From a virus (lineage: Duplodnaviria; Caudoviricetes), in the IMG/VR virus record IMGVR_UViG_2931642416_000001, positions 8,874-72,873 of that record: a stretch of 64,000 nt of DNA, one strand, 5' to 3'. A program made the position numbers and the translations under genes. The notes under the pieces were generated by a model. It ran no database searches. It saw only the letters and a list, made by a program, of their open reading frames with translations, and was not told the DNA's origin. Positions 2,228-61,725 of this stretch are shown here, in pieces (the stretch's first letter is position 1; each line of letters opens with the position of its first letter).

Positions 2228-2490
2228 TGGACACGCTGGAGCAGATCGCCGCGTTCCTGAACACCGCCTCGGGCGGCACGTGGCTCCTCGCCGGTGGTGT
2301 GATCACGGTCCTCCTCACGGTCGCCGCTGTGGCGTGGATGTTCCGCCGCTCCCTCCCTGTGGAGGAGATGGCGGACCCGGCCTACAACCCGGGCCTGGAC
2401 CGCCACCAGAGGGTCCTGCGCGAGGTGTTCCGCGGCGAGGCTGAGCGTTACCCGGTCGACCTCCACGACGTGTTCGAGGAGGACCGGTGA
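2227..2490 (+). CDS. Small single-TM membrane protein
   Basis: Hydrophobic stretch WLLAGGVITVLLTVAAVAWMF. Confidence 0.65.
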   Translation: MDTLEQIAAFLNTASGGTWLLAGGVITVLLTVAAVAWMFRRSLPVEEMADPAYNPGLDRHQRVLREVFRGEAERYPVDLHDVFEEDR

Positions 2491-2798
2491 GGAGCGCGCG
2501 TCTGACCGACAAGGCTGGCAGCGGGAACGGATGGCGGCAGCGCGCTGCCTGCCGAGACGTTGACCCAGTCCTGTTCTTCGGCCCCGCGGGCGAGAAGGCC
2601 GTCTCTGCCTACATCCGCGAGACGGAAGCGGTCGCATTCTGTAACGCCAACTGCCCCGTCATCAGCCAGTGCCTGGAGTGGGCTCTCCAGCTCGGCGAAG
2701 CCGGCGTGTGGGGCGCCACCACGGAGGACGAGCGCAAGGCCCTCAAGCGGCGCCAGCAGCGGGCCGCGCTTCGTGCCGCGGCGAAGGCCGCCACCTAA
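2487..2798 (+). CDS. whiB: WhiB-family Fe-S transcription factor
   Basis: WRQRAAC..DP.LFF, C..CPV...C, GVWGAT..ER motifs. Confidence 0.92.
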   Translation: MRSARLTDKAGSGNGWRQRAACRDVDPVLFFGPAGEKAVSAYIRETEAVAFCNANCPVISQCLEWALQLGEAGVWGATTEDERKALKRRQQRAALRAAAKAAT

Positions 2799-2826
2799 CC
2801 CCCCATCCAAGATCAAGGACTTTGCC

Positions 2827-3243
2827 ATGGGTTCACGTAAACCGCAGGACTACAGCCCCGACGAGTTCGACTCCGTCGTGGAGATGATCCGCAAGGATGC
2901 GTCGCTACGCGCGGACATCGAGGCCATCACCGGGCAGACGGTCTACGGCAAGACGCCCCGCGAGCTGTTCAACCTCTTCCGCACGATCGAGAAGACGACG
3001 GCCGTGCAAGCCGCGGTCGTGAACTACGGCCGCGCACGCCAAGCCGTCCGAGAGACCCGAGCCATGCTCGCTGAAGGGTCGCTCGAAGACCTGGCCCCGG
3101 CCGACCCGGCGCTGCGCCGTATCCAGGACCTGGAAGCGAAGGTCGACGAGCTCAAGAGCACCAACAGCCGGCTGAAGGAGACCAATAAGGCCCTCATGTC
3201 CGGCAAGCCGATCAGCGTCATCAAGGGAGAGGTGGCCTCGTGA
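2827..3243 (+). CDS. Hypothetical helical/coiled-coil protein coupled to the RAMP-like gene
   Basis: AAGGA RBS; GTGA overlap with the ORF at 3240. Confidence 0.75.
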   Translation: MGSRKPQDYSPDEFDSVVEMIRKDASLRADIEAITGQTVYGKTPRELFNLFRTIEKTTAVQAAVVNYGRARQAVRETRAMLAEGSLEDLAPADPALRRIQDLEAKVDELKSTNSRLKETNKALMSGKPISVIKGEVAS

Positions 3244-3953
3244 GCGCCGTCGACATCTTCGGTACCGCGTCCAGCGTCGCCATCTACCGGGTGCGGCTGC
3301 AGGTCCTGGACAAGATCGTGGGCGGGGTGCCGTCCAGCCCGTCGGTCATCAAGGGTTGGCTGAAGACCCGCATGGAGCTGGGCGACCGGGATCTGCAGGA
3401 GCTCACGCAGAAGACGCTGACCGAGCGGTTCCAGGACCGTCAGCCGTCCGCTGACGAGCTGGCCGACGCGCTGCTGGAATCCGATGCGGCTCCGTCCGTC
3501 AACGGGTTCAAGCGCATCCCCGACACGGGCGAGCTCGCCTACGAGGGACGGTGCATGAAGGCCGCGCTGAAGGAGTTCATGAACTCCGCCTACCCGGGCG
3601 TGGAGTGGCCTGGGAAGTCCGCGGTGTCGAAGGGCTTCCGCAAGGGGCTGATGTCGACGGCGGCCGAGCGCGTGTTCGTCGAGGACATCTACATCGGTCT
3701 CGGCGTGAAGGAGCCGACCGGGGTCGAGGAGCGGATCAAGCACGTGATGACCCCGCAGGGGCCGCGCAGTTCGATCAACCGCGTCGAGTACGTCGACAGG
3801 CCGCTGCTGGAGTTCACCCTGAAGGTCCACGACGACTTCCTGCCGGCCGAGGCGTGGGGCCGCATCTGGGAGCGCGGCGAGGACATCGGCGTCGGCTCAG
3901 ACCGTGGTCGTTCCGACGGCAAGTTCGAGCTGGTCTCGTGGGAGCGGATCTGA
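3240..3953 (+). CDS. Stand-alone Cas7/RAMP-superfamily-like protein (Vipr-like candidate)
   Basis: N-terminal strand YRVRLQVLDKIVGG; 'LAYEGRCMKAALKE' resembles the RAMP P.IPGSSLKGALR motif; C-terminal G-rich loop GVGSDRGRSDGKF. Confidence 0.72.
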   Translation: MSAVDIFGTASSVAIYRVRLQVLDKIVGGVPSSPSVIKGWLKTRMELGDRDLQELTQKTLTERFQDRQPSADELADALLESDAAPSVNGFKRIPDTGELAYEGRCMKAALKEFMNSAYPGVEWPGKSAVSKGFRKGLMSTAAERVFVEDIYIGLGVKEPTGVEERIKHVMTPQGPRSSINRVEYVDRPLLEFTLKVHDDFLPAEAWGRIWERGEDIGVGSDRGRSDGKFELVSWERI

Positions 3954-4370
3954 CATGGCTCTCCTGCACTGCGACGCCGCGCTCGTGGATGCGGCTAGCC
4001 CACCCTTGTGCGACAAGCCCAGCCCCGCCTCACGCACGCCAAGCCACACCGACACCTCGTGCCTAGCCACGCTCCCGCCGACCCGGCCCGCTTCGACGAG
4101 CCTCGCCCGCCCGAGCCGTGCACCGCGTCTGGCCGTACCGACACGCCACGTCACATCTACCCGCTCCACACCCACCCGACATGCCATACCTGGCCGCGCC
4201 GTACGCATCCCGACAACCCGACCCTTCCCCTGTCAGGCCGCCACCGACTTGCCATCCCAGATCTAGCCGGGGGCGACAATCCGGGGCCGCTCCGACCCGT
4301 GCAGCGACATGCCACTCCGTTGCCTGTCCTGACGAGCCGACGGGCCAGACCTGATCTGAGCTCGACGCCG
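3951..4370. repeat. Non-coding array of ~11 YGAC-delimited units of 5-nt (NN-NCC) modules; candidate guide-RNA array
   Basis: CGAC at 3972, 4011, 4050, 4094, 4139, 4177, 4211, 4245, 4274, 4305, TGAC 4330, CGAC 4363; e.g. CGAC-at-gcc-at-acc-tg-gcc-gc-gcc-gt-acg-ca-tcc. Confidence 0.8.
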
Positions 4371-4386
4371 GCATAGCGAACGACGA

Positions 4387-4415
4387 AGGGCCGCCCGCAC
4401 CGGGCGGGCGGCCCT
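4387..4415. terminator. Perfect 12-bp GC stem hairpin closing the array
   Basis: AGGGCCGCCCGC-accgg-GCGGGCGGCCCT. Confidence 0.75.
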
Positions 4416-4450
4416 GACAACTAGCAGACACGAGAGGAGGGGCAGGCGTC

Positions 4451-4630
4451 ATGACCCCCGAGGAGATGTACGCCGCGGTCGACGCCCGCCGGCAGGAGTT
4501 GGACCTGCCTTGGTGGCGGATCGCTATCCAGCTCCAGTGCACGTCCGATCAGGTGCGGTGGATGAGGCGCGGCCACGTGTCGAAGCCGTTGCGGGCCCGC
4601 GTCGAGGCGTGGCTGGGGGAGGCGTCGTGA
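4451..4630 (+). CDS. Small HTH-like protein (59 aa; not in ORF track)
   Basis: GAGGAGG RBS; MTPEEMYAAVDARRQELDLPWWRIAIQLQCTSDQVRWMRRG resembles an XRE-type HTH. Confidence 0.6.
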   Translation: MTPEEMYAAVDARRQELDLPWWRIAIQLQCTSDQVRWMRRGHVSKPLRARVEAWLGEAS

Positions 4631-4635
4631 AGACG

Positions 4636-4824
4636 TCAGGAGTCGGCCGACTCCGTCGGAGCCTTGGGCGGGCGGGGAAGCTTGGCGCCTCGCTCGCCCA
4701 CGTACCAGCGAAGGAACTCGCGGATCACGGCGGAACGGTTGCGGTCGCCCACGATCGCGCCGAAGGCAGCCCACAGCTCGTCATCAACCCGGATGGGGCG
4801 GTGTCGCGTGTGGGTGTCTTTCAC
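4636..4824 (-). CDS. Ribbon-helix-helix (CopG/Arc-like) regulator
   Basis: RPIRVDDELWAAF...NRSAVIREFLRWY. Confidence 0.75.
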   Translation of the reverse strand: MKDTHTRHRPIRVDDELWAAFGAIVGDRNRSAVIREFLRWYVGERGAKLPRPPKAPTESADS

Positions 4825-4838
4825 GAGGTCAATGGTAG

Positions 4839-4912
4839 GCGCTGTATATACAGCGCTGCTCAGCGCAAGGTTGCCGTGTATATCCACACCCGCTATCGTC
4901 GTGTATATCCAC
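4839..4912. promoter_or_regulatory. Operator cluster in divergent promoter region
   Basis: Palindrome GCGCTGTATATACAGCGC at 4839-4856; direct repeat CGTGTATATCCAC at 4875 and 4900. Confidence 0.7.
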
Positions 4913-4974
4913 GCCAAGGGCAAGTGCCCTGGCAGATAGGCGTTTGTTCACGCGAGACCGGGGGTCTATTTCGC

Positions 4975-5493
4975 ATGCTCAAAAACACCTGCAAGTCCAG
5001 CGCCAGACGCACTCTGCCCGCGCACGAGACGGGCCATCACCTGACCTACCGCCTGAGCTGCGATACGTACGAGCAGATGCTCGCTGACACCGAGCAGTGC
5101 TGCGAGATCTGCGGCACGCACGCCCGGAAGAACCCAGGCGGCAAGCTCTACATCGACCACGACTATGGCCTTGGCAACTGGGCGGTCCGCGGGCTGCTGT
5201 GCAACTACTGCAACACCCTGATTGGCGACCGGCCAGGGTGGCACCTGCCCGCGCATCTCGACGCCACGCCCTATCTCACTAACCCCTGGTACGCGCGCCG
5301 GCTGGCCGAACTCGGACGCACCCCACATGGTCCTGCCGAGCCCAAGAACGGCTCGCTGGTCGTCGATTACCGAGGACGCATCTGGGGTCGTACAGGAAGC
5401 GGCTGGAGGCAGGCGCCCGGTCGCGGCCGGATCATCTCGTGGGCCTTATTGGTCACCTGGTCCGGCCCCATCTCATTGACCGTTCTTCATTAA
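4975..5493 (+). CDS. Endonuclease VII-domain (HNH-type) protein
   Basis: CEIC...IDHD...VRGLLC..CN..IG motif. Confidence 0.85.
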   Translation: MLKNTCKSSARRTLPAHETGHHLTYRLSCDTYEQMLADTEQCCEICGTHARKNPGGKLYIDHDYGLGNWAVRGLLCNYCNTLIGDRPGWHLPAHLDATPYLTNPWYARRLAELGRTPHGPAEPKNGSLVVDYRGRIWGRTGSGWRQAPGRGRIISWALLVTWSGPISLTVLH

Positions 5494-5593
5494 TCGAACA
5501 ACTGAGTGATCAGGGGGACTGAAGTGGCGCAACCCCGAAGACCGGCCCAGCTCCGAACCGGAACGACCTACTAGAGCAACTGGAGCGCCGAAC

Positions 5594-6607
5594 GTGGCGG
5601 GAAGCTACGCCAAGATCTTTAACGAGATCTGGGCAGACCCGGACTTCAGGTCCCTCAGCAGGGGCCAGCAGTGGCTGTACTTCGCGCTGATCAGTCAGCC
5701 GGAGCTGAACTTCGCCGGCGTGGTGACGACGACGGATCGCCGTCTCACGGGTTGCGCCGCGGGGTTCACGGTGGATGAGCTGCGGGCCGATCTGAAGGTG
5801 CTGGAGGCCCGCAGGTACGTCGTCGTGGACGACGAGCATGACGAGATCCTGGTCCGCTCCTACGTGCGCCATGACGGCGCGTGGCGGACCCCGAACGTCC
5901 TGACGAGCATCGTGCGGGCGGCGGTCGGTGTCCGGTCGACCGCCATCCGGGCCACCCTGGCGGAGGAGTTGGCGCGGCTTCCGCTCCAGGAGTTGTCCGG
6001 CAAGAAGGCCGAAGACATGCGGGCGTCGGTCACAAGGGTTATCGAAACCCTTAGGCCAAGGGTTGCCGCAACGGTTCCCGCAAGGGTTAGCCGAAGCGTT
6101 ACGGCAAGGGTCACGGAGACCCTTCCGGAAGGGTTGGTTCAACCCTCGGCCCAACCCATTGCCGAACCCATCGTTGTTGTTGCTGTTGTAGGTGAAGAAG
6201 TTAAAGACCGTACTTCGGTCACTCTCCCTCACGATCCTTCGCCTCCTTCGGAGTCGGAGAGTGAGGGCGTTCTCATCGAGCTGCCGACCAAGCCGAAGAT
6301 CGAGTGCGGCAGCGACCAGGATCCCGACTTCGTCGCCTTCTGGACGAACTACCCGCGCAAGGTCGGCAAGCCGTCCGCCCGCACCGCATGGCGCAAGGCG
6401 ATCAAGGCCGGCGTGGACCCGAAGGTCGTGATCGAGGCTGCCGCCGCCTACCGGGACGACCCCGAGCGGCGACGTCGCGGCAAGCAGTTCACGCCGCACC
6501 CATCCACCTGGCTCAACGATGACCGCTACGAGCCTGACGAGGACGACGAAGACGACACCTGGACCTGGAGCGACGTCCAAGAGGCTGCCCCGGCGGAGTT
6601 CAACTGA
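5594..6607 (+). CDS. Phage replication initiator (replisome organizer)
   Basis: IW.DPDF..LS N-terminus; FW..YPRKVGK and HPSTWLN C-terminal motifs; lies upstream of the helicase. Confidence 0.85.
   Translation: MAGSYAKIFNEIWADPDFRSLSRGQQWLYFALISQPELNFAGVVTTTDRRLTGCAAGFTVDELRADLKVLEARRYVVVDDEHDEILVRSYVRHDGAWRTPNVLTSIVRAAVGVRSTAIRATLAEELARLPLQELSGKKAEDMRASVTRVIETLRPRVAATVPARVSRSVTARVTETLPEGLVQPSAQPIAEPIVVVAVVGEEVKDRTSVTLPHDPSPPSESESEGVLIELPTKPKIECGSDQDPDFVAFWTNYPRKVGKPSARTAWRKAIKAGVDPKVVIEAAAAYRDDPERRRRGKQFTPHPSTWLNDDRYEPDEDDEDDTWTWSDVQEAAPAEFN
6034..6171. repeat. Putative replication origin iterons inside the initiator gene
   Basis: 12 copies of AAGGGTT/AACCCTT-like heptamers at ~12-bp spacing. 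Confidence 0.75.
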
Positions 6608-47757: not shown

Positions 47758-48546
47758 TCAGGGCTGTACGCGCTCGATCTCGATGGCCAGCACGCCGAGC
47801 GCTTCCTTCTCTGGCCCGTAGATGCGGCGAATGTTGGCGAGCTGCTGCTCACGCGAGGAGTCGGGATTCACGCGCTCCGGCCCCTCGGTGTCGAGCAGTT
47901 CCTCGAAGCTGTCGTAGACCGCAACCCGTACGACCTTGGTCAGGCACTCATCACCGTCGCATCGGAACAGGATGCGCTGCCCAGCGGCGAGGTCGCGCAG
48001 GTTCGAGTAGAGGACCCGGACCTCGACGGACTTGCGGCCAGCAGAGACCAGATCGAAGTAGGGGCGGTAGAGGTTCATGTCGCGTGCCGGGGTCTCCCTG
48101 CGCTGCCAGCCATCGAGGCTGAAGGCGTCGCCGCGCTGGTAGGCGCCAAGGCCGGCGCGGATGTAGGAGACGACGTCGCCAGGCAGATCGTCCAGGGGGA
48201 ACCATTCGATCTTGTCGCACTTGCTCGGTTCGGCATTCACCGGTTCCCCACCCCATCGGCTCGTGGCGAAGAAGACGCCGATGCGGGCCTGGCCGTCGGG
48301 GTCGGCGTGGTGGCAGACGCCGGCGAAGTCGAGGTCTGCGGGGTTGATGTCGATGCCCAGCTCCTCGCGAGCCTCCCGTGCGGCCCCCTCAGGTAGGGTC
48401 TCGCCGGCGTCGAGGCAGCCCCCCGGGACGGACCAGAGGCCGTCGGCGAACCCCGTGTTGGCTCGCAGCAACAGCAGGACCTTGTCCCCCTCGATGAGGA
48501 TCAGGTGGACGCCGACGTGGGGCCGGAACGGTTCAGGTGTGGACAT
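47758..48546 (-). CDS. NUDIX hydrolase-ASCH/PUA domain fusion
   Basis: Nudix box GG.LD.GET..EGAAREAREELGI; ASCH MNLYRPYFDLV..GRKSVEVR. Confidence 0.88.
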   Translation of the reverse strand: MSTPEPFRPHVGVHLILIEGDKVLLLLRANTGFADGLWSVPGGCLDAGETLPEGAAREAREELGIDINPADLDFAGVCHHADPDGQARIGVFFATSRWGGEPVNAEPSKCDKIEWFPLDDLPGDVVSYIRAGLGAYQRGDAFSLDGWQRRETPARDMNLYRPYFDLVSAGRKSVEVRVLYSNLRDLAAGQRILFRCDGDECLTKVVRVAVYDSFEELLDTEGPERVNPDSSREQQLANIRRIYGPEKEALGVLAIEIERVQP

Positions 48547-48633
48547 GGCCGTGCTCCCCGTGGTGGCGATGAGTCGTGGGTGTCACGCTACGCGGCCACA
48601 CGGGGAGCACGGGGTCTGTTTGCCGGGATGGAT

Positions 48634-49317
48634 CTAGACGTCGCTGCCGGGCAGCTGGGCGCTGGCCATCGCGTGGACCATGGCGGCGAGGTGGTCGGCG
48701 AGCTGCTCCGGCGTGCGGTTGTCGGTGTGCAGGTGGTAGGCGGTGGAGTCAGTGTCGGCGATCTGGTCGTAGTGGTCCTGCAGCCGTCGCAGCAGGGCGC
48801 GGTCGGCGATGAGGTCGCGATCGGATGCGGTCTGGTCGGGTTTGCCGGTCATCCGCGCGGTCAGCTCGTCCAGGTCGGTGTGCAGGTAGACGGTCAGGTC
48901 CGGCTGGGCCAGGTAGCCGACGAAGGGCGCGATGGTCGCGACGACGGTGCCATTGTCGAGGCCGTGGACGGCGGAGTGGTTGGCTATAACGGAGTTGATG
49001 TAGCGGTCGGCGACGGCATGCCCGGTCTCCAGGGACTGGCGGGCCAGGTCGGAGGCGTGTAGCGCCCCGGCGAGGTAGAAGGCCAGCTGCGGTAGCGCCT
49101 GGGCGTGGGCGTTGATGTACGGCTGCAGATCAGAGACTGGGGCGGGCACCGTGTGGAAGGCACGGCAGTCCAGCCGTTCGGCGAGGTGTCGGGCGAGGGT
49201 GGACTTGCCGGATCCGCTGATGCCCTCCAGGACCACGAAGATGCCCGATCGTGCTGTCTTGGCCGGCTGGTAGGCGGCGGGCAGCTGGTTGCTGATGCCG
49301 GGGGCGATGATGGTCAT
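48634..49317 (-). CDS. Thymidylate kinase-like NMP kinase
   Basis: LEGISGSGKST P-loop; ADRY; PDLTVYL. Confidence 0.85.
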   Translation of the reverse strand: MTIIAPGISNQLPAAYQPAKTARSGIFVVLEGISGSGKSTLARHLAERLDCRAFHTVPAPVSDLQPYINAHAQALPQLAFYLAGALHASDLARQSLETGHAVADRYINSVIANHSAVHGLDNGTVVATIAPFVGYLAQPDLTVYLHTDLDELTARMTGKPDQTASDRDLIADRALLRRLQDHYDQIADTDSTAYHLHTDNRTPEQLADHLAAMVHAMASAQLPGSDV

Positions 49318-50345
49318 CAGAGGGTCCCTTCGGTGAAGGCGTCCAGGTGGGCGGAGACGGCCGCCAGCAGGCCGGCCGGGTCTTGTGCGTACGGGGTGAC
49401 GTCCAGGCGGAGGTCGGGGCGAAGTAGACACGGGCTGAGCTCGCCGGCCGAATCCAGGCGCAGCGCCCAGAACCCCTCGATGCACTGCGCTCGCTTGGGG
49501 CAGGTGGTGCACTGGCCGACGTGGTGGCGGCCGAGGGAGGCGTCGATGACCTCGATCGTCATTGGTCCGCGCTGGCCGGGGACGTTGAAAACGTGGCGCC
49601 CCTGTCCCGTACCGGAGGTGACGACCTCCCCGCTGGTGGCGATCGAGCGCAGGTAGGCGGTGATGTCCCCGGAGGGGACCTTGGCGCTCAGCTGGTTGTG
49701 GTCGGTGTCGACCAGCTCGATGATCTGCAAGCTGGTGCCGAGCTCGCGCGCGTAGGCGATGATGTCCATCACCTCGTGCGCGTTCTGCTCCTGCAGCAGC
49801 AGGTTCAGCTCGACGATCGGGATTACCTCGATGGCGGCCTCGATCCCGGCCTTGATCTTGGCGATGTCGCCCGGCTTGCCTTCCGCGATGGCGGCGATGG
49901 AGGCGTCGGAGAAGTAATGCAAGCTGACCTTGATCCGGTCGAGTGCGGTGGCGGCCAGCCAGTCGAGGTCCTTGGTGAGGGTGAGCCCGTTGGTGATGAG
50001 CGTGGTGGTGTAGTCGCTCATGTCGTGTGCGGGCAGGCCCTGCAGGATCGGGCGGGCCAGCGGGGACAGCAGCGGTTCGCCACCGGTGAAGAAGACGCGG
50101 CGGATCCCGGCGGCGGTCATCGCGTTGATCGCGGTCAAGAAGTCGTCGGCTCCCATCGCCCGCCGACGGGGCTGGATGGTCCGGTCGTGGTGGGTGATCC
50201 GGGGCGGGATCTCTCCTTCGTTGTGGCAGAACCAGCACCCGAGCTGGCAGCGGGGAGTGAGAGAGACTCGCAGCTGGCCGCCGCGGCGGGCGAAGTCGCC
50301 GCCCAATGGCGCCGCAGTGGGGAAGCCGAGCGCGGTCGGTGGCAT
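49317..50345 (-). CDS. Radical SAM enzyme, MoaA-like
   Basis: CQLGCWFCHNEG; TGGEPLL; ITNG; C-terminal C..C....C..G..LRL...G.L.PCL. Confidence 0.88.
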   Translation of the reverse strand: MPPTALGFPTAAPLGGDFARRGGQLRVSLTPRCQLGCWFCHNEGEIPPRITHHDRTIQPRRRAMGADDFLTAINAMTAAGIRRVFFTGGEPLLSPLARPILQGLPAHDMSDYTTTLITNGLTLTKDLDWLAATALDRIKVSLHYFSDASIAAIAEGKPGDIAKIKAGIEAAIEVIPIVELNLLLQEQNAHEVMDIIAYARELGTSLQIIELVDTDHNQLSAKVPSGDITAYLRSIATSGEVVTSGTGQGRHVFNVPGQRGPMTIEVIDASLGRHHVGQCTTCPKRAQCIEGFWALRLDSAGELSPCLLRPDLRLDVTPYAQDPAGLLAAVSAHLDAFTEGTL

Positions 50346-50509
50346 GATGCCTCCTCTGGTCCGGTGTGACTCCAGAAAGCCCCGAACCGGTGCCCCATGC
50401 AGGCGCGCTTGCATAGGTCGGCAACGGTTTGCATGTACTGCAAACCGGCGTGCCTCCAAGGCGTTGGCCAGCTACGGTGAAGCGGGGACTCTCTTCTGTG
50501 GAGCAGCCG

Positions 50510-54654: not shown

Positions 54655-56976
54655 CTATCCGTCACTGTCCCCGCCTCCCGGGGTGTGGGACTCCAGTGGT
54701 GGCGCCGGGTCGGGCCCACCCTCTACCTGGGCCTCCCCGCCCCTGCCCGAGGGGCCATCTGGGGGTATCCGCAGCTGAGCATGTGGGCCTCCCTCGGCCG
54801 GCTTGGGGTCGTCTCCCCCTTCGGCTCGCCCGGACCGCAGCTCCTCCTCCGCCTCCAGCGCGCCCACGACCAGCTCGCGCTCCCCCGCGCTCCGCCGCCA
54901 CTGCCCCTGCTTCGGCTGCTCGATCAGTCCCCTGCGCCGCCAGGCCGCCCGCCGTGCGCTCGCCCACGCGCGGCTGCGAGGCGAGACGGCGTCGTTGGAC
55001 ATCGCGGTGGTGACCAGGCCGGGGGAGAGGTGCACCTCCACCAGGGCCCGCAGGTGCGGGTCGGCGATCTCGGCCGTGAGCGCGTCCATCTCGCCGGGAG
55101 GCTCGATCGTCTCGCTCACCACCAGGCGGGGTCGGCCATCAGCAGCGGCCACACGCCGCCCCTTCCGGCCCGCGCGTTCCCTCGCCTCCCGGACCATCTC
55201 CCGCTGGCGGTCGCTGGCGTGCTGCAGCAGCGTGTCCGGCAGCCCCGCCCACCTGTCCCGGTAGAACGGCAGCCGGTCCGCGGTCGAGGGTTCCAGCGTG
55301 GGCGCGATCCCTTCCGTCGCCGCTGCGGCCTCCATCAGCATCACGTCCGTCACCTCCGGCGTGAACAGCAGCGTTGTGTCATCGGAGCCGGACGACTGGA
55401 CGTAGAACGCTCCAGGAGGGAGCTCGCTCGTCCTGAACCGGTTCCAGCCGCGCAGCAGGAACTGGGAGTCTGCGTCGTTGCGGGTGCGGCCGGCGAAGCT
55501 CGTGGTGAAGTTCGGCAGCAGCTTTGGATGCACCGAATCCTGGTTGAAGTACTGGGTGGCGCCGTGAACGGCGAGGTTAAACGCCCGCCCTTCCGACGTC
55601 ACCTTGTTGGTGTCCTCGACGATCGCCGCAGCTGCCTTGCGGGTTTTGGCCCAGATGACGCGCACCTCATCGGCGAAGATCTCCACAGCAGGCCACTCCC
55701 GGGTAGCGGGGAGGACCTGGTTGTGCTCGGGCAGCAGCAGCTCGGCGCGTAGGGGAATCATCGCCGCAGCGTCGGCCATCATCTCCGCGGCCTGCTCCTC
55801 CGTGACGGCGATCCGGTCGATCCGGGGCAGCAGGTGGGCGTACGCCTTGCCGCCCGACTTGAGGTCGATCACCCAGATGAGCTTCGGCGTGTAAGCAGCA
55901 AGCAGGGCCCGTAGGCGCAGCAGGTTGGACTTGGTGGAGCCCGTCTTGCCGCCGTACAGGCCGTGGATCGACCCGTAGCCCTCGACGAACGGCCACACGT
56001 AGAACGGCTCACCGTCGTCGGTGCAGCCCAGCCACACCGCGTCGTAGGCCGTCGTCGGCATCTGCGGCGGGTCGAACGCGACCGTGCGTGCTTCGATGCG
56101 GCCTTCCTGCCAGATCAGTACTGCTCGGGCGGAGGAGGTGTGCTTGGGGTCCTGCCTGATGTCGCGGATGCTGCCCTTCGGCCAGTGCATGCCGGTCTCG
56201 ATGTGGCGGCGGGCGGCGGGCTTGTCGATGTCCTCCCGGGTGACGTTCACGGGCAGGCGGAGCGGGAAGGCCACCTGGCCGGCGCCGGTCACTTCGGGCC
56301 GGGTGACGGTGACGCCGGCGAACCCGTTCGCGGCGAACACCATCGGCAGGGTGGCAGCCCAGTTGCGGACGCGCTCGCGCAGGTGCCGCCATGCGCGCAC
56401 GTCACGCGGCAGCCACCAGGCCGCGACAACGGCCAGGGTGAGGGTGAGCCAGGCCACGTTGAGGATCTCGGTCGGCCCCCACACGGTGGCCGCTGTCATC
56501 CACAGGCCGAGCACTACGAGCGCTCCGGCTACCGTGTCGGCCTGCACGGGCAGCACGCCCGTCCGGTCGACAAGCACTCGCGCTGCAGCGGCCAGAACAG
56601 CCATCGCCATGGCCACGGCTGCCCACGGGGCGGCCAGCAGGTGAGCGGCAGCAGCGAAGACGTACAACGCCGAGCACGCCCACCAGACGGCGTGGAGGTC
56701 CCGGTGCCGCCACAGCCGCCGTCCGATACGCCGGGCGAGCCACCATCCCGGTACTCGCGCCAGCCACCACAGGAGCGGAACCGGCCACACCAGCAAAAGG
56801 ACAGGCAGCGGCAGGCGCACGAACCACGGCGCCTTGCCCTCAGGGAGGGGAGGTGCTGGCACCAGCTCAGTGCCTGTCCCGCCCTCGCGGTGAGCGGTCA
56901 GTGCTCCCCGGGCTGGGCGCCGCATCAGATGCCACAGCGTCGCGGCGACACCGACGAGGAGCAGTGACAGCAGCAT
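54655..56976 (-). CDS. TraB-like FtsK/SpoIIIE conjugative DNA translocase
   Basis: N-terminal TMs; GKTGSTKS Walker A; IDLKSG; IFADE Walker B; GRA...ATQ; C-terminal wHTH-like region. Confidence 0.85.
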   Translation of the reverse strand: MLLSLLLVGVAATLWHLMRRPARGALTAHREGGTGTELVPAPPLPEGKAPWFVRLPLPVLLLVWPVPLLWWLARVPGWWLARRIGRRLWRHRDLHAVWWACSALYVFAAAAHLLAAPWAAVAMAMAVLAAAARVLVDRTGVLPVQADTVAGALVVLGLWMTAATVWGPTEILNVAWLTLTLAVVAAWWLPRDVRAWRHLRERVRNWAATLPMVFAANGFAGVTVTRPEVTGAGQVAFPLRLPVNVTREDIDKPAARRHIETGMHWPKGSIRDIRQDPKHTSSARAVLIWQEGRIEARTVAFDPPQMPTTAYDAVWLGCTDDGEPFYVWPFVEGYGSIHGLYGGKTGSTKSNLLRLRALLAAYTPKLIWVIDLKSGGKAYAHLLPRIDRIAVTEEQAAEMMADAAAMIPLRAELLLPEHNQVLPATREWPAVEIFADEVRVIWAKTRKAAAAIVEDTNKVTSEGRAFNLAVHGATQYFNQDSVHPKLLPNFTTSFAGRTRNDADSQFLLRGWNRFRTSELPPGAFYVQSSGSDDTTLLFTPEVTDVMLMEAAAATEGIAPTLEPSTADRLPFYRDRWAGLPDTLLQHASDRQREMVREARERAGRKGRRVAAADGRPRLVVSETIEPPGEMDALTAEIADPHLRALVEVHLSPGLVTTAMSNDAVSPRSRAWASARRAAWRRRGLIEQPKQGQWRRSAGERELVVGALEAEEELRSGRAEGGDDPKPAEGGPHAQLRIPPDGPSGRGGEAQVEGGPDPAPPLESHTPGGGDSDG

Positions 56977-57272
56977 CAGGTGTCCTCAGGGGAGGGGAGC
57001 GTCTGCGGCGGGTCGAGTGAGCCGATGCCGGCGGCGAGGACCACCAGGACAGCAGCGATGCCATGGAGAGCGTGCCAGCAGAACCGGGCGCACGCGGCCA
57101 GCAGGAGTAGGGCGACAACGACGGCGATCTGGAGTGAGCGGCCTGCGATCCGCCTCCATCCGCATGCCTGGAGTTGAGCGCGGATCTGGCTCGGGGTGAG
57201 CGCCTCGGGCGACACCTCGCGCACACCACACACGAGTAGGGCTAGGAACAGCCACGGCAGCAGAGTTATCAC
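56976..57272 (-). CDS. Small membrane protein (Spd-like)
   Basis: Hydrophobic; coupled between the Spd-like gene and traB. Confidence 0.55.
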   Translation of the reverse strand: MITLLPWLFLALLVCGVREVSPEALTPSQIRAQLQACGWRRIAGRSLQIAVVVALLLLAACARFCWHALHGIAAVLVVLAAGIGSLDPPQTLPSPEDT

Positions 57273-58699
57273 GCCATGCTCCGCCTCGGGTCGGCCTTAC
57301 GTCGCTGACGCCACGGCAGCTCGGCAACCCACTCCTTGCGTTTACGGGAGGCGTGGGCGGGATCGACGTCCGCATGGGTGGCGAGATCCTTGACAGTGGG
57401 GTAGCGGTCTTCGGCGACTTCGCTCTCCCAGAAGTCACGCATGACCTGCGTCTTGGATGCGTCCCGAGGGTCTTCGTTGACTCCGTTGTTGACGCCGCCG
57501 CCGATCAATTCCGGGGTCAACAGCGGGGTCATGTACGGGTCGGCCGCAAGTAGCTGCGCAAGGTCGTACGAGGCGTTGTCGTTGACGTCGAACTTGAGTC
57601 CCCCGTTGACCGATTCGACGGTCAACGGGGAGGTCATCGGGAAGGTCAACTTACCCGCCTCTCGGGAGGGCGGAACGGCACCGTTGTTGACCTTGCCGTT
57701 GATCCCAGAATTGACCTGCGCCGAGGTTACGTCGAAGGTCACACGCTCGGTCAACGCCATCAGCGTCACCGCCGCCTTGTCGAGCGCGCGCTGGGTAGCC
57801 TCCGCCGAATCGAACCGCTGCTCCTGTTCGATCGCGGCGATGGCCTCGGCGCGCTTCTCCTGCGTGACGGGGTCGGCCCAGCGGGCGATCCGCTGACGGG
57901 CGACGAGGGCGTCAACGCTGCGCAGGGTGTCGATCTGGTCGAGCAGCGCCTGCTGAGCCGTCTCGTCGGAGGCGAGGCCGGCGTGCTCGACTGCCTGCGC
58001 GACCCTCTTGCGGAACAGGCCGAGCGCCTTGCGCCGCTTGCTGGGCTTGGCGTGCTGCTGGTCGTCCACCCGCAGGACGGCGAGCGCTGCTCGGCTGATG
58101 CGCCGCTGACGGTCGACGTCGCCCGCGGTCCTGTCGGTTGCCTCCGCTAGGCCGAGCCGCACTAGGACGCGTTCGGGGGTGAGCCGCCAGTTGATGCGGC
58201 CGGTGCCGCGGATGCGGTGGCGTTCGATGGCCATGCCGCGCTCCCAGAGCCAGGCGGCGACCAGCGGGGCGGCCAGGCGGAAGACGGCCTCGGGGAGGCT
58301 GCGGGCGTCCATGCTGGACAGGACGGCGGTCAGGCAGGTCAGCGCCCACACCGCGATGCCGTCGATGCCGGCGGAGAAGTTGGCGCGCATGTTGCGGCGG
58401 GCGCGTACGGCACTCGTGATGATCGCGACTTCGATGAAGGCGAACAGCAGCAGCCGCAGCGGCCCGTCGAGGCCCAGCACGTCCCCTGAGAAGCGCCACA
58501 TGCCCTGCGCGGACACGCCCGTCGCGATGGACGCGGCCACGACCGTCAGCAGCTCCTCGATCGGCTTGCCGGAGAGGAGACGCCGGCCCTGCGCCATGAG
58601 GCCGCGCAGGAGGAAGACGGACAGGACGAGCCCGAGAATCCCGGCGATCCATGGGACGTACCACGGGACAGGTCCCGTTAATTCAAGTAGGTTCTGCAT
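57269..58699 (-). CDS. SpdB/KilB-like multi-TM protein with C-terminal HTH
   Basis: Four to five N-terminal TMs, coiled region, C-terminal PTVKDLA..ADVD..HASR. Confidence 0.7.
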   Translation of the reverse strand: MQNLLELTGPVPWYVPWIAGILGLVLSVFLLRGLMAQGRRLLSGKPIEELLTVVAASIATGVSAQGMWRFSGDVLGLDGPLRLLLFAFIEVAIITSAVRARRNMRANFSAGIDGIAVWALTCLTAVLSSMDARSLPEAVFRLAAPLVAAWLWERGMAIERHRIRGTGRINWRLTPERVLVRLGLAEATDRTAGDVDRQRRISRAALAVLRVDDQQHAKPSKRRKALGLFRKRVAQAVEHAGLASDETAQQALLDQIDTLRSVDALVARQRIARWADPVTQEKRAEAIAAIEQEQRFDSAEATQRALDKAAVTLMALTERVTFDVTSAQVNSGINGKVNNGAVPPSREAGKLTFPMTSPLTVESVNGGLKFDVNDNASYDLAQLLAADPYMTPLLTPELIGGGVNNGVNEDPRDASKTQVMRDFWESEVAEDRYPTVKDLATHADVDPAHASRKRKEWVAELPWRQRRKADPRRSMA

Positions 58700-58934
58700 C
58701 GATCGGTCCTCTCGGTGATGCGGGAGTCCGGTTGCAGGGCCTCTCGCTCGGGTTGCAGCCTGAGCGGGAGGTCCTTATTCGTTTGTGGAGGTTGGTGGCC
58801 GTCCCTGGGGAGGTCCCGGCCCGCAGCGAGCGCCACGACTGGTGGAAGTCGGGCGGCGCGAGCCCTCCCTCAGGGGCGGCGTCTGCACCCCTGCCCTGGC
58901 CCCCTCCAGTACCAGGGCAGGGGTGGTCTAAGGG

Positions 58935-59258
58935 TCAGCGCCGAAGATGACGCAGATAGATGCCGTATGCCCTCTGCATCAGCGCGACGCGTAGATCACC
59001 TTCGGAGATGCGGCCCTTTGCCGCCGCCTTGGCGTAATCGCCGGTGATCGGCACGGGCCCCAACTGGTTCAGCATGTAGAGCAGAGTCACTGCAGCCAGC
59101 ACGTCGCAGTCCTCGGCGGGCCGCCACGGCTTCGTCTGATGGCCTCGCCGGCCAGCCTCGGTGAGCCACCAGCCGCCTTCGGCGTCGATCTCGAAGGAGT
59201 AGACGGCACCTTCGGGAGCGATGGCGGCGAACTCGTCGCGGAAGTCGCGGGGGATCAC
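58935..59258 (-). CDS. Hypothetical protein
   Basis: AAGGA RBS; coupled ORF. Confidence 0.55.
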   Translation of the reverse strand: MIPRDFRDEFAAIAPEGAVYSFEIDAEGGWWLTEAGRRGHQTKPWRPAEDCDVLAAVTLLYMLNQLGPVPITGDYAKAAAKGRISEGDLRVALMQRAYGIYLRHLRR

Positions 59259-59404
59259 GGCTTGTCCTTCGGTTCCGGAATGACCTGCTTGACCAGGTGG
59301 CCGGCTGCGCGCTTGCGGCAGGCAGTCCCAGTGGGGCCTTCCCAGTCGCCGTCGGCGTTCTCTTCGACGGTGTCGCCGCACGCCAGGCAGAAGAGGAAAC
59401 CCAT
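59255..59404 (-). CDS. Small Zn-ribbon protein
   Basis: GGAGG RBS; CLACG...C...H. Confidence 0.5.
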   Translation of the reverse strand: MGFLFCLACGDTVEENADGDWEGPTGTACRKRAAGHLVKQVIPEPKDKP

Positions 59405-59628
59405 CACGCGCCTCCCGTCTGTCTGCACGGGGCGATGCTGCGACGCAGCCGGGCGGCGGTGAGGCGGCGCCACTGCCTGAACAGCAGCAGCTCGTCCTCG
59501 GCGCGGGCACGCCGCAGAAAGCCGTCTGGGCATGGCGAGTCGTGGCGCACGTCTTCAGCGGGGGGAGGCCCGTCATCTCCGCTGGAGGTGACCGGGCTCT
59601 CCCGGCTAGGCAAGTCGGGGAGGGCCAT
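59404..59628 (-). CDS. Small hypothetical protein
   Basis: First ORF of the transfer operon, divergent from GntR. Confidence 0.4.
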   Translation of the reverse strand: MALPDLPSRESPVTSSGDDGPPPAEDVRHDSPCPDGFLRRARAEDELLLFRQWRRLTAARLRRSIAPCRQTGGA

Positions 59629-59759
59629 GGCACGACCATAGGCAGTTACTCATCAGTAGTCTAGGTAATAGTCTTCAAATCATCATCTGATGTCCTTAAG
59701 ATCCCTAAGTAGATTGAGCTAAATGAAGGACTGATGGTAGGCAGACCTACCGTCGAACC

Positions 59760-60173
59760 GTGATCGACTATGAGTCGGAGTTCCCCGTGTACCTGCAGGT
59801 GGCGAACCTGATACGCGCCCGTATTGAGGCGGGGGAGTGGCAACCCCGAAAGCGGCTGCCAACGGTCACTGACCTGGTGCACGAGTACGGCGTCGCCCGC
59901 AACACGATGATGCAGGCGATCGAGCACCTGCGAGACCTCGGCATCATCTACACGGTCCGGAACCGTGGATCGTTCGTCCGCCTCGGGTCGGATCTCGTCA
60001 CTGTCATCGAGCTGGGGCCTGGGGCTCGCAGCTTCTCGCGACTGGCGAACTCAGACGAGCGCGAGCGTCTGGAACTCGATGAAGACGGATGGGTCACCGT
60101 GATCGAATCAGGCGACGGGGCGATCGAGGTCTACCCGGCCGGCCTGGTCGAGATTCACGGCCCCCAGCAGTAG
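59760..60173 (+). CDS. GntR-family repressor (Kor/TraR-like)
   Basis: PVYLQVA..IRARI..GEW....LP...L..EYGVAR.T..A...L...G. Confidence 0.88.
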   Translation: MIDYESEFPVYLQVANLIRARIEAGEWQPRKRLPTVTDLVHEYGVARNTMMQAIEHLRDLGIIYTVRNRGSFVRLGSDLVTVIELGPGARSFSRLANSDERERLELDEDGWVTVIESGDGAIEVYPAGLVEIHGPQQ

Positions 60174-60232
60174 GAAGAACGAAGGCCGGTTCGCTCGCCT
60201 CGCGTCAGACCGGCCTGTGCCCTACTTCTCCT

Positions 60233-60526
60233 TCACGTTGCTCCGCCGAGCGTCTGTAGGACGCTAGCTGTGACCACGCGCTTGACTCCGCCCACCTCGA
60301 TCACTTGGGCAGGGAACTCGCCCCGCTTGATCAGCTCGTATGAGTAGCTGCGGCTGATCCCAAACGCGAGGCCGGCGGTGGGTGGGTCCACGGTGGCGGG
60401 CCACTGCTTGATCTCGTTCAAGGTGGGGACATCGGCTGGCGGCTTCTCGGCGAGAGATAGCGAAGGGTGCGCCTCCAGGAAATCTGCGAGAGCTCGAAGT
60501 GCTGAGATGATTACGTCTTGGCTCAC
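60233..60526 (-). CDS. Excisionase-like HTH protein
   Basis: PATVD..TAG.AFGISRS.SYELI.RGEFP..VI.VG..RV.TA.V. Confidence 0.75.
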   Translation of the reverse strand: MSQDVIISALRALADFLEAHPSLSLAEKPPADVPTLNEIKQWPATVDPPTAGLAFGISRSYSYELIKRGEFPAQVIEVGGVKRVVTASVLQTLGGAT

Positions 60527-60792
60527 AGGCCACCGCGGTTCTTGGCTGCCTTCGCTTTGCGCATCTTGAGCGTCATTGCCTCGTAGTAGGCCGTCCTGGC
60601 GTTCGTGGCGCGCTTCACTCTCTCGGCGTACGGCATCGTGGAGTCGGGATCCACGCGCTCAAGCCAGTAGTCCAGCGATGCGGGGGAGCGTCGCCGCATG
60701 TTGACGGTGGCGGCCAAACGGTCGGTCTCCTTCGCCCAGCGGGCGTTGGCCGCGATGCGGGCGATAGTTCGTCGTTCAGCGGGAGTGGGCAT
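60523..60792 (-). CDS. Conserved actinobacterial mobile-element protein
   Basis: ER...ARIAA..RWA...DR.AAT...VDPD...ER..RA..AR..Y. Confidence 0.7.
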   Translation of the reverse strand: MPTPAERRTIARIAANARWAKETDRLAATVNMRRRSPASLDYWLERVDPDSTMPYAERVKRATNARTAYYEAMTLKMRKAKAAKNRGGL

Positions 60793-60807
60793 GTACAGCC
60801 TCGGCTC

Positions 60808-61482
60808 TCACAAGTCGGCAGGCACCCAGAAGTAGCACTCCTCGCCGCTGGAGAACCCGCCATCTGTGGGAAGGATGGTGACAGTGATGTAGCCAGGTGC
60901 GTACGTCACCAGGTTGTTGGCGAGCGTCTCGCCGCCTTTGGAGACGCGCTCCCAGTAGCAGCCCTTCAGGCCCTTATCGAGGGTGCGGTAGCGGCCCGGC
61001 TTGATGCCTCTCTTGCCACCGACCTGGTGTTCGCCGTCGTCAAAGCCGCCCATGGCTTGCTTCCACGTCTTGATGTACTTGGGGCAGAAGTGCAGGACGG
61101 CGCTGCGCTCCACGGACCCGATCATGCTCTTGTAGGTGGCGATCCCTTCGACGTTGGGAGGATTTCCGCCCTGGTCGTCGTAGATCGTTTCTGAGCTGCC
61201 TTGGCCGCAGAAGTCGTGCCCGAAGCTGATCAGGTCTTCGTCGGTGGCGTCTTGGTAGCCTTCCGGGAGCTTCTTTCGGGCGTCCCTGATGAACGCCTTC
61301 TCCTTGCCGGTGAGCTGCCGGGTGGAAGTGGGTGTCTCGCTCGCGGCCCGTGTAGTGCTCTCCGTCGTCTCTGCGGGGAGGGAGGAAGCCGGCGTCGCGG
61401 CGGTGGGAGCTGCCGTGGTTGAAGTCGAGCAGGCAGTCAATGAGGCCGCGATCACGGCTATGCGGACCGTGCGTAAGCGCAT
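60808..61482 (-). CDS. Lipoprotein (DUF732-like + IKPG.Y domain)
   Basis: Lipobox LTAC; G..FC...A...CP; IKPGRY...CYWER. Confidence 0.8.
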   Translation of the reverse strand: MRLRTVRIAVIAASLTACSTSTTAAPTAATPASSLPAETTESTTRAASETPTSTRQLTGKEKAFIRDARKKLPEGYQDATDEDLISFGHDFCGQGSSETIYDDQGGNPPNVEGIATYKSMIGSVERSAVLHFCPKYIKTWKQAMGGFDDGEHQVGGKRGIKPGRYRTLDKGLKGCYWERVSKGGETLANNLVTYAPGYITVTILPTDGGFSSGEECYFWVPADL

Positions 61483-61725
61483 GGCGTGACTCCAGAGACG
61501 GAAGGTCCGGACGAAAGAAGACGCGCTGCCGCCGACTGTGGAGTACACAAGAGAGCGGCGGCGTGGGCCCGACAGCTCCGTGAGGAATCTGCTTCCACGC
61601 CGCCGCGTTCACCCCCTCTTACCCTCGTTTGTCATGGGCATGCCTAGACACGCCTAGGCATGTCTGGGGCTGTCTGGGCGGTTCCCGGCGGACTGGGGGC
61701 GTCCTGGGATCACTACCGTTCTTCC

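Follow-up and report, generated by a model that had tools for sequence, protein, structure and literature searches.

Gene content of the locus

The stretch of DNA analysed here (the window) comprises 64,000 nucleotides of a 72,873-nt virus record in IMG/VR. A PHROGs scan of its 25 larger ORFs identified terminase, portal, capsid, tape measure and tail proteins, an endolysin, a replication initiator and DnaB, and the window is a prophage carrying the full gene set of a siphovirus. The locus described below consists of a small partner gene (2827-3243), a stand-alone gene for a RAMP protein (3240-3953), a non-coding array of five-nucleotide repeats (3954-4385) with a boundary element near its vipr-proximal edge (3969-4001), and a hairpin on its vipr-distal side (4387-4415). 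All of the genes around the array lie on the + strand. A blastn search of the region against a phage collection gave no match.

Scans for CRISPR components were uniformly negative. No cas family was detected among the 25 ORFs covered by PHROGs or the 58 further ORFs covered by a Pfam scan, and no 18-mer is present three times, or twice within 20-120 nt, in the 64-kb window. Cas5, Cas6, the large subunit Cas10, Cas11, adaptation genes and a repeat-spacer array, the parts expected of a class 1 CRISPR-Cas system, are all lacking from the window. This bears out an initial annotation, made from the sequence alone, which had seen no other cas gene and no CRISPR repeat.

A stand-alone RAMP protein and its small partner

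The + strand ORF at 3240-3953, read from the sequence and here called vipr, encodes a Cas7-like RAMP protein of 237 residues; its GTG start codon is overlapped by the TGA stop codon of the gene upstream. Structure prediction gives a RAMP fold, with high confidence and with structural matches to Cas7 and Csm3; the model comprises an RRM core, a helical insert (residues 34-80), a β-hairpin thumb (residues 161-186) and, ahead of the final strand, a glycine-rich loop. Its structural alignments with the Cas7 family show 7-21% sequence identity. In an alignment of 32 homologs the invariant or nearly invariant residues are G28 and G29; E102, R104, C105, K107, K111 and E112; and G217, G219, R222, R224, D226, G227 and F229. 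The motifs named in the initial annotation are thus invariant or nearly so, and the RRM/RAMP fold that it had expected is predicted. A profile search with this family recovered 895 cluster representatives, and Pfam searches with 20 distant relatives gave only sub-threshold matches to the Cas6 C-terminal domain, in 3 of the 20 (E 0.002-0.06).

The overlapping upstream gene (2827-3243, + strand) encodes an all-helical protein of 138 residues with a C-terminal coiled coil, a candidate vipr-accessory (vap-like) protein. An AF2 model (pLDDT 83.4) has four helices. Pfam returned only sub-threshold coiled-coil matches and PHROGs none; Foldseek of the model against the PDB gave nothing at E≤0.001 (best E 1.8), and a search of the ESM Atlas nothing above chance. 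Most related loci have a homologous ORF immediately before the RAMP gene, and 14 of these homologs, when aligned, show 16-59% identity to the window's copy. Judged from sequence, this conserved cassette of small partner and RAMP gene matches the 'vipr plus vap' layout described in the published account (10.64898/2026.04.26.720920), and the translationally coupled 2827-3243 would then be the accessory partner of the system.

A pentameric array begins at the vipr stop codon

The vipr stop codon runs directly into non-coding DNA at 3953/3954, as had been noticed at the outset. The tract is C-rich (A 68, C 189, G 104 and T 56 in the 417 nt of 3954-4370) and strongly periodic. Its lag-5 autocorrelation over 3954-4370 is 0.439, compared with 0.312 ± 0.02 in 500 dinucleotide-preserving shuffles (z 6.21), so that the peak proposed earlier as a check on the array is present. 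The corresponding z values are 1.76 at lag 10, 2.45 at lag 15 and -1.97 at lag 3, the last of which, beside the lag-5 value, indicates that the tract is not coding-like. When the whole 64 kb was scanned in 150-nt windows with a step of 25, the ten highest lag-5 excesses all started between 4051 and 4301, the top one being 0.175 against a mean of 0.012 (sd 0.037); the array is the strongest lag-5 signal in the window.

The array at 3954-4385 can be written as NNRCC pentamers on the + strand or, on the minus strand from which the presumed vrRNA guides would be read, as GGYNN pentamers, in runs of approximately 5-8 with GTC between them (CGAC on the + strand). Between 3954 and 4385 there are 16 copies of CGAC, where 1000 shuffles average 7.4 ± 2.0 and never exceed 14; the complement GTCG is absent from the + strand there. 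The initial annotation had described about 11 units of 21-45 nt; this is roughly right, and its example units at 4139, 4177, 4211 and 4245 read as written, but the 15 CGAC intervals span 8-45 nt and therefore include shorter units as well. Many of the window's units are degenerate or out of register: a strict NNRCC run of four units occurs only once, at 4181-4200. Tandem Repeats Finder reported nothing on the array because the units are too degenerate.

A profile anchored on 225 GTCG sites in 14 arrays gives a sharper picture. G has a frequency of 0.88 at position -5, 0.84 at -10 and 0.79 at -15, and C of 0.61 at -3, so that the pentamer before GTC opens with G (0.88), G (0.69) and C (0.61); the register resumes at +3. 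Among 233 spacings between punctuation marks 88 are of the form 5n+3, the commonest being 33, 38, 39 and 28 nt. In 57 clean units the third position is C 182, G 60, T 34 and A 28 times, that is, a pyrimidine in 71% of clean pentamers (216/304) and a purine in 29%, and the NN positions are near-uniform.

Two structured elements flank the repeats. At the far end lies the perfect 12-bp, G+C-rich hairpin that had been seen to close the array (4387-4415), with folding energies of -29.9 kcal/mol on the + strand and -28.8 on the minus strand (z -5.1 and -4.1); 0 of 200 shuffles fold as well. A comparable hairpin occupies this place in no more than a subset of the related loci (L002, L004, L006 and L012). 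The vipr-proximal edge is marked by a conserved boundary element at 3969-4001, whose + strand sequence is YGCGACGCCGY followed, after a loop that varies in length, by GATRCGGCTAGCC. A covarying stem of 5 bp and a palindrome of 8 bp lie within it, and its halves, by reading of the sequences, stand 16-25 nt apart. A regular expression found it in 25 of 30 arrays, as 19 distinct sequences in which the Y/R pair is C-G in 5, T-A in 14 and broken in 0. One related locus, L027, has a variant of the element, which is repeated before its second array; in general there is one conserved structured element per array. Folded alone, the window's copy shows no unusual stability (z +0.4 and +0.7).

A + strand run of five GGYNN pentamers at 48892-48916 was dismissed as chance; by sequence reading it appears to lie within a minus-strand ORF. 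GUC was also considered as a ribozyme site and rejected, an Rfam scan of 2400-5600 (E≤10) showing no hammerhead; the scan returned only six chance-level rows (E 1.4-6.9), far below gathering scores.

The array accompanies the gene in all related loci

In all 29 related loci an array directly adjoins the homolog downstream, in the same orientation. The set is made up of 13 loci from bacterial genomes, 15 proviral loci from IMG/VR (3 are copies of loci in the genome set) and Microcystis phage Mae-JY09, whose homolog has 34% protein identity and is likewise followed by an array. The prophages belong to high-GC actinomycetes (Nonomuraea, Streptosporangium, Actinomadura, Microbispora and relatives); L012, for example, is from Nonomuraea wenchangensis CGMCC 4.5598 and L005 from Actinomadura sp. 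WMMA1423. The array content has diverged more than the gene: vipr DNA is 75-82% identical over approximately 700 nt to its nearest relatives, and the arrays share only patches of 38-104 nt. The homologs thus carry five-periodic arrays of mostly different NN content beside a conserved gene, the point on which the initial annotation had proposed to test them.

The locus is very probably a VIPR system

VIPR (Viral Interference Programmable Repeat) systems are virus-against-virus RNA-guided systems first described in 2026 (10.64898/2026.04.26.720920), where a survey of 667 loci in seven types is reported. The viral systems with GGY/NN RNAs to which the initial annotation had likened the locus are in print (10.64898/2026.04.26.720920 and 10.64898/2026.04.26.720927), GGY/NN being the published guide motif (bioRxiv 10.64898/2026.04.26.720920). 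As described in these accounts, one protomer binds each 5-nt repeat and the NN dinucleotides form a gapped code (10.64898/2026.04.26.720920; 10.64898/2026.04.26.720927). The same arrangement, a subunit per 5-nt module and a gapped NN code, had been proposed for this DNA from its sequence.

Very probably, in our view, the early region of this siphovirus, integrated in a Streptosporangiaceae-type actinobacterium, carries a VIPR system whose guides are most likely read from the minus strand. The reading is favoured because the minus strand of the array is the GGY/NN motif, with near-uniform NN, and because the array is linked to the homolog, in the same orientation, in all 29 related loci. Three features expected of such a system are found: on the minus strand a pentamer array of at least four units with a fixed GGY and a variable NN, a minimal locus outside any CRISPR-Cas context in the 64-kb window, and carriage by phages or prophages, seen in the siphovirus genes of the window, the 15 relatives on IMG/VR contigs and the one in a sequenced phage.

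By analogy with the work on phage SUSP1, 3240-3953 would encode Vipr, a minimal Cas7-like RAMP that polymerises on guide RNA, one protomer per 5-nt repeat, burying the fixed GGY trinucleotide and presenting the variable NN dinucleotide. The NN string would pair with double-stranded DNA, every third base being skipped, and the bound complex would silence the transcription of a rival phage, satellite or prophage. The tract 3954-4385 would encode the guides, most likely on its minus strand, with the repeat GG(C>G>T>A)NN, each guide being a short run of approximately 5-8 pentamers, most often 6. GTC between runs, with no NN after it, may be a register break that ends one filament, or a processing site, and the hairpin-plus-palindrome element would mark the vipr-proximal end of the array.

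Several observations weigh against this assignment. The third position is a pyrimidine in only the 71% of clean pentamers given above, and the published pocket is said to exclude purines; the units contain 5-8 pentamers, against 9-16 in the published description (10.64898/2026.04.26.720920). An hhalign comparison of the 32-sequence profile with SUSP1 Vipr detected no sequence similarity (probability 0.2%); RAMPs share little sequence similarity, according to the same report (bioRxiv 10.64898/2026.04.26.720920). Natural targets were not found in the searches made, which are described below.

Probable strand of the presumed guides

On sequence grounds the array is probably transcribed from its minus strand. 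Three arguments favour this. The repeat equals the canonical motif at all three fixed positions on the minus strand only. D221 of the glycine-rich loop, nearly invariant among the 32 aligned homologs, stands by eye where SUSP1 Vipr has the guanine-reading D177 in the published description. Finally, the single conserved structured element then lies 3' of the repeats, like the tail described in 10.64898/2026.04.26.720920.

A rather unlikely alternative is that this is the same kind of system but that its guides come from the + strand, in one transcript with vap and vipr, so that the handle is RCC (mostly GCC) and the locus belongs to a VIPR branch with a cytosine-based handle. The initial annotation had proposed this reading, taking the sense (NCC) strand as the RNA. 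The surrounding genes are all on the + strand and the array begins at the vipr stop codon. Eight loci (L003, L007, L009, L018, L021, L023, L030 and L027) have an array that continues up to the ribosome-binding site of the following + strand gene, so closely in several of them that a minus-strand promoter would not fit. The far-end hairpins of the window, L002, L004, L006 and L012 could end a + strand transcript, and the boundary element would stand in the position of a leader, also before the second array of L027. RNA of the + strand is weakly structured (-32 to -50 kcal/mol per 200 nt, against -77 to -88 for the minus strand), falling below its own shuffles in 4 of 4 arrays. The GGY repeats of SUSP1 share the strand of vipr, and the minus-strand reading here is the reverse arrangement. 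Handles do change, since Vipr-linked arrays with other fixed trinucleotides, for example GAC/NN, CAC/NN, WGT/NN and TGH/NN, are described in passages of 10.64898/2026.10.21.760802.

Against + strand guides, the + strand motif is the canonical GGY/NN exactly reverse-complemented, with its parts correctly ordered, a coincidence that for a freely evolved handle we estimate, without computation, at roughly 1 in 30 to 1 in 60. The strong hairpins between the vipr stop codon and the array in L002, L005, L007, L008, L026 and L027 would fit the ends of convergent transcripts at least as well. The 16-25 nt between the halves of the boundary element do not suit a -35/-10 promoter, and consensus scans found no + strand promoter; indeed these scans found no sigma-70-like promoters and no terminators on either strand of 2400-5000, nor in L014. 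Two promoter-like sites in L027 were dismissed because they lie inside an ORF.

In its most developed form, which we think unlikely, the + strand reading would have a large actinobacterial Vipr clade recognise a GCC/NN handle, the mirror image of GGY, in guides transcribed with vipr, with GAC as the register break and often six protomers per guide; six protomers make one turn of the Vipr filament as published. If true, the pocket of an ancestral RAMP could be re-specified to a pyrimidine-rich, intrinsically unstructured guide, and there would be a second, orthogonal VIPR chemistry. The minus strand remains the reading adopted here.

Searches for targets, and other readings of the array

The NN guides of 57 clean units were compared with the window's own contig and 14 related loci (182,622 nt), at skip lengths of 0-3, and showed no excess of matches over 20 order-shuffled sets. 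One window guide of seven pentamers matched 4 times across 401 genomes from the family to which L001's genome belongs, where a reversed control matched approximately 18 times; five genomes with related loci yielded 0 matches to it. IMG/VR contained 0 exact matches to long guides taken from L005 and L008, and when up to 3 mismatches were allowed, the L005 guide still had 0 matches in 104 genomes of its genus. The published target search used nhmmer and accepted an NN match of at least 80%. These searches are low in power because the units are short.

The blank searches and the many degenerate or out-of-register units in the window might suggest a decaying, non-functional relic, or an array that acts as DNA, for example as a set of protein-binding sites, instead of as a guide RNA gene; a dimer that binds DNA would fit the 8-bp palindrome of the boundary element. 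We regard this as very improbable. All 29 loci retain the array beside the gene, even where protein identity is only 34%, and conserved fixed positions combined with variable NN are the mark of selection acting on a repeat code; vrRNAs described in the published accounts are also internally degenerate (10.64898/2026.04.26.720920 or 10.64898/2026.04.26.720927). That the periodicity arises from base composition or from a coding frame overlapping the tract, as a G+C content of 70% and long chance ORFs on both strands might allow, is refuted by the dinucleotide-preserving shuffles (z 6.2, with no 3-nt periodicity), by the scan in which the array gave the top lag-5 signal of the window, and by recurrence of the same pattern in all relatives, and has a negligible chance of being correct.

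Comparison with known systems

Read as VIPR, the locus is a further example of a kind of system already known. The closest described relatives are the type II systems (Vipr, vrRNA and vap) of Escherichia phage SUSP1 and a Pseudomonas fulva prophage (10.64898/2026.04.26.720920; structures in 10.64898/2026.04.26.720927). As in type II, on the published description, a small stand-alone RAMP protein forms a two-gene cassette with a small partner, next to a non-coding pentamer array with a fixed GGY and a variable NN, in a phage or prophage and with no CRISPR array or other cas genes. The G-loop GVG(S)D....G[KR]F is common to SUSP1 Vipr and the 237-residue protein.

The differences are in layout. 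GGY lies on the strand opposite vipr here, but on the same strand in SUSP1. Only GTC separates the short units here, whereas each guide in SUSP1, as described, has 9-16 repeats and its own structured tail of approximately 40 nt, so that there is one structured element per array here and one per guide in SUSP1. Position 3 is C-biased but 29% purine, as opposed to the published GGY, and the protein has 237 residues with the helical insert at 34-80, compared with 195 residues in SUSP1 Vipr. The locus therefore departs from type II as typified by SUSP1, with its vipr-strand vrRNAs of 9-16 repeats and a conserved 3' tail on each. The 'staggered arrays' shown in fig. S18 of 10.64898/2026.04.26.720920 may be the same architecture as that found here.

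Non-canonical VIPR-like arrays have also been found with a genomic language model (bioRxiv 10.64898/2026.10.21.760802). These resemble the present array in being 5-nt periodic, intergenic and beside a Vipr-like fold. They differ from it in their GAC, CAC, WGT and TGH handles and approximately 10 repeats; GTC-punctuated short runs and an RCC handle go unmentioned in the passages on them.

The best structural matches are CRISPR Cas7 backbone subunits (Csm3, Cmr4, type VII Cas7 and the domains of Cas7-11), with which the protein shares the RRM core, the thumb and the glycine-rich loop. By analogy the two would also share the principle of subunits polymerising on guide RNA at a fixed step, which would be 5 nt here and is 6 in the CRISPR backbones. 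Unlike CRISPR-Cas systems, the window has no CRISPR repeats, spacers, Cas5, Cas6, Cas10, Cas11 or adaptation genes. VIPR systems have been proposed as viral ancestors of the CRISPR effector backbones, and they offer programmable DNA binding through a gapped code that is new and needs no PAM. Our loci indicate that prophages of high-GC actinomycetes commonly carry the system, in a layout that differs from the SUSP1 type in its inverted array, short guides with a 3-nt break and single conserved end element. This layout makes it possible to test how guide ends are defined when there is no tail on each guide, and how strict the GGY handle and its strand are.

Fold and family of the Vipr protein

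The 237-aa protein encoded at 3240-3953 (+) matched no family in Pfam or PHROG, and its named homologues, from Nonomuraea, Streptosporangium, Actinomadura, Microbispora, Sphaerisporangium and their relatives, are all annotated as hypothetical. A word-indexed search found 350 homologues at E≤1e-3, and a HMMER profile search reached 895 cluster representatives at E≤1e-3 (557 of them at E≤1e-10), indicating a large protein family. An AlphaFold2 model built from a 32-sequence alignment was confident (pLDDT 87.8, pTM 0.77), and Foldseek returned 152 PDB chains at E≤0.001, with Csm3, Cmr4, type VII Cas7 and Cas7-11 at the top. A viral structure library gave three matches at E≤0.001, all phage proteins, one of them named as a RAMP superfamily protein. 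The predicted structure thus bears out the RAMP/Cas7 fold proposed in the initial annotation, and the motifs on which that proposal was based are invariant or nearly so across the alignment.

A pentameric array accompanies the gene

Directly 3' of the ORF lies a C-rich non-coding tract. Lag-5 autocorrelation over 3954-4370 was 0.439, where 500 shuffles that preserve dinucleotides gave 0.312 (z 6.2), which confirms the 5-nt periodicity originally claimed for 3951-4370; lags 10 and 15 were slightly elevated and lag 3 fell under expectation. When the whole 64 kb was scanned with a sliding lag-5 measure, the ten best 150-nt windows all began within 4051-4301. CGAC occurs 16 times in 3954-4385 (7.4 ± 2.0 expected from 1000 shuffles), and GTCG is absent from the + strand there. 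No 18-mer recurs in the tract, and Tandem Repeats Finder picked up nothing there; what repeats in the array is a degenerate code rather than a fixed sequence. The perfect 12-bp hairpin said to close it is present at 4387-4415 (-29.9 kcal/mol, z -5.1).

A 5-periodic, C-skewed tract begins at the gene stop, or no more than about 100 nt from it, in all 13 bacterial-genome loci (protein identity 54-83%; one locus is an Acidimicrobiales MAG). Matching downstream arrays were found in 15 of 15 IMG/VR loci, three of which are the same DNA as genome loci and give identical figures, and in Microcystis phage Mae-JY09, at 34% protein identity. The side and orientation of the array relative to the gene were constant in all loci compared. 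Over some 700 nt the gene DNA shares 75-82% identity with its nearest relatives; their arrays have only 38-104-nt patches in common with that of the window, mostly at the vipr-proximal end, so that both the downstream array and its differing content in homologues are as the initial annotation had anticipated.

The stretch 4011-4054 of the window's array matches 3836-3879 of L021 and 4853-4896 of L012, two related loci, at 84-89% over 44 nt. Vipr-proximal units are common to other loci and distal units are not, an age polarity that recalls CRISPR arrays at their trailer end. Mae-JY09 is a sequenced phage whose reported host is cyanobacterial. Downstream of its Vipr-like gene, at the right end of the phage, come an array of like design, C-rich and punctuated by CGAC, and a terminal hairpin; annotation is hypothetical or absent throughout this locus (PP395641.1 37713-38976).

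Anatomy of the arrays

Fourteen arrays were read on the minus strand and their profile anchored on 225 GTCG sites. The pentamer before GTCG is G (0.88), G (0.69), C (0.61), N, N; a GGCNN-type pattern returns at -10, -15 and further upstream, and the register resumes immediately past GTC, with GG at +3/+4 and next at +8/+9. The array therefore consists of GGYNN runs split by GTC triplets to which no NN is attached. Spacings of 5n+3 account for 88 of the 233 between punctuation marks, the commonest spacings (33, 38, 39 and 28 nt) corresponding to 5-7 pentamers. In 57 clean units the third pentamer position was C in 182 cases, G in 60, T in 34 and A in 28, and both N positions were near uniform despite a 70% G+C genome. 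The GGYNN/GTC pattern is almost perfect in the related loci L005 and L006; the array in the window is more degenerate, and its units contain slips of 1-2 nt.

Among related loci the shortest arrays measure about 400 nt and the longest exceed 2,500 nt, very long examples being those of L027 (1814-3535, 1.7 kb) and L029 (3793 to beyond 6292, >2.5 kb with >50 punctuation marks). A single unit of L006 (4872-4949) consists of ten identical consecutive GGCTT pentamers; recent expansion by slippage could explain it, as could a role as guide against a TTx-periodic target.

Of 30 arrays, 25 have on the side nearest vipr a boundary element comprising YGCGACGCCGY, a variable loop and GATRCGGCTAGCC, with 19 distinct sequences represented. 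Its Y/R pair is C-G in 5 of the distinct sequences and T-A in 14, with no mismatches, kinship being ignored in these counts. The two halves, as read from the element sequences, are 16-25 nt apart, a gap that suits a hairpin rather than a -35/-10 promoter. In L027 a further array, from 3905, follows an intervening gene of 120 aa, and because a variant of the element again stands in front of that array, the element belongs to the array.

Assignment to VIPR and comparison with SUSP1

VIPR systems were first described in 2026 (10.64898/2026.04.26.720920, 10.64898/2026.04.26.720927), with further literature in 10.64898/2026.10.21.760802 and 10.64898/2026.10.15.759431. As outlined there, they comprise a stand-alone phage-encoded RAMP protein (Vipr), usually one accessory gene, and vrRNAs, the guide RNAs, made of GGY/NN pentamers (10.64898/2026.04.26.720920). 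One Vipr protomer serves each repeat and the NN bases pair with DNA (10.64898/2026.04.26.720920, 10.64898/2026.04.26.720927); the pairing skips every third target base and silences competing mobile elements, and other architectures exist, including 'staggered arrays' (fig. S18) (10.64898/2026.04.26.720920). Since the locus in the window combines the testable features of such systems, namely a RAMP fold, a minimal non-CRISPR locus, a GGY/NN pentamer array and a viral setting, with a partner gene as candidate accessory gene, we file it with them. Judged by sequence and predicted fold, the gene at 3240-3953 and its array are a VIPR system, and the initial VIPR-like proposal was essentially right. 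VIPR as a kind has been in print since April 2026; what the locus adds is the record of a large clade in actinobacterial prophages whose array is inverted and punctuated by GTC.

The vipr gene of Escherichia phage SUSP1, the studied type II example, was found in KT454805.2 as a 195-aa ORF with H17, E71, M72, R138, D177, W178 and R179, residue numbers that agree exactly with those in the structural preprint (10.64898/2026.04.26.720927). SUSP1 arrays carry GGTNN on the gene strand and a hairpin tail after each guide, whereas in the window the gene and the GGY repeats are on opposite strands, the short presumed guides are set off only by GTC, and the clade has one structured element per array.

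Guide strand and targets

The guide RNA is probably transcribed from the minus strand, as judged from the repeat and its surroundings. Only there is the repeat canonical GGY/NN at all three fixed positions, and by eye the G-loop Asp D221 takes the place of the guanine-reading D177 of SUSP1 and Arg R176 that of its thumb residue R138. The conserved hairpin would then lie 3' of the repeats, as the published tail does. Six loci also have a strong hairpin separating the end of vipr from the array, which is what two convergent transcripts would call for. Transcription from the + strand, which we consider rather unlikely, would match the direction of all neighbouring early genes. In at least eight loci the array adjoins the ribosome-binding site of the next + gene, leaving no room for a minus-strand promoter, and some loci have a strong far-end hairpin. 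Folding predictions also give the C-rich (+) RNA far less structure than the G-rich RNA and, in four of four arrays, less than shuffles of the same sequence. A newly evolved + strand handle would hardly be expected to match the exact reverse complement of canonical GGY/NN by coincidence. Neither strand around the array showed a recognisable promoter.

Target prediction is independent of the strand, the NN positions being identical on both. The guide-target search gave no enrichment and no convincing target; the 10-16 specified bases per unit afford little power.

Partner gene and prophage setting

The 138-aa partner gene (2827-3243, +) ends inside the vipr start codon and is present directly upstream of vipr in most loci. 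The predicted structure of its product consists of helices alone, among them a long coiled coil; no matching fold or family was found. The window represents a siphovirus-type prophage (source virus record 72,873 nt) with large terminase, portal, capsid/protease, tape measure, tail proteins and endolysin, and an early region encoding WhiB (2487-2798), a replication initiator and a DnaB-type helicase. None of the 25 + 58 other ORFs scanned in the window is a cas gene, in agreement with the earlier statement that no other was present.

Just past the closing hairpin is a small ORF of 59 aa (4451-4630, +) with a strong ribosome-binding site, and convergent to it an ORF (4636-4830, -) that by eye is a candidate ribbon-helix-helix regulator, with no Pfam match at E≤1e-4. 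Directed at the array, this ORF could feed its minus-strand transcription. Its C-terminal codons (reverse of TCAGGAGTCGG) also occur beside the arrays of four related loci (L001, L002, L012 and L017). A recombination endonuclease VII domain protein (4990-5493, +; PF02945, E 2e-11) is encoded after the VIPR cassette and ahead of the replication genes. Directly past the endolysin region, 47758-50459 (-) encodes a NUDIX/RNA-binding fusion-like protein (PHROG matches) and a radical SAM protein (PF04055, E 3.6e-19), which may be prophage cargo. Past the lysis genes, 54655-61548 holds large minus-strand genes, one with a weak FtsK/SpoIIIE-like PHROG match (E 4.5e-8), and a GntR-family regulator (59760-60173); this region is reminiscent of an actinomycete integrative conjugative element adjoining the prophage.
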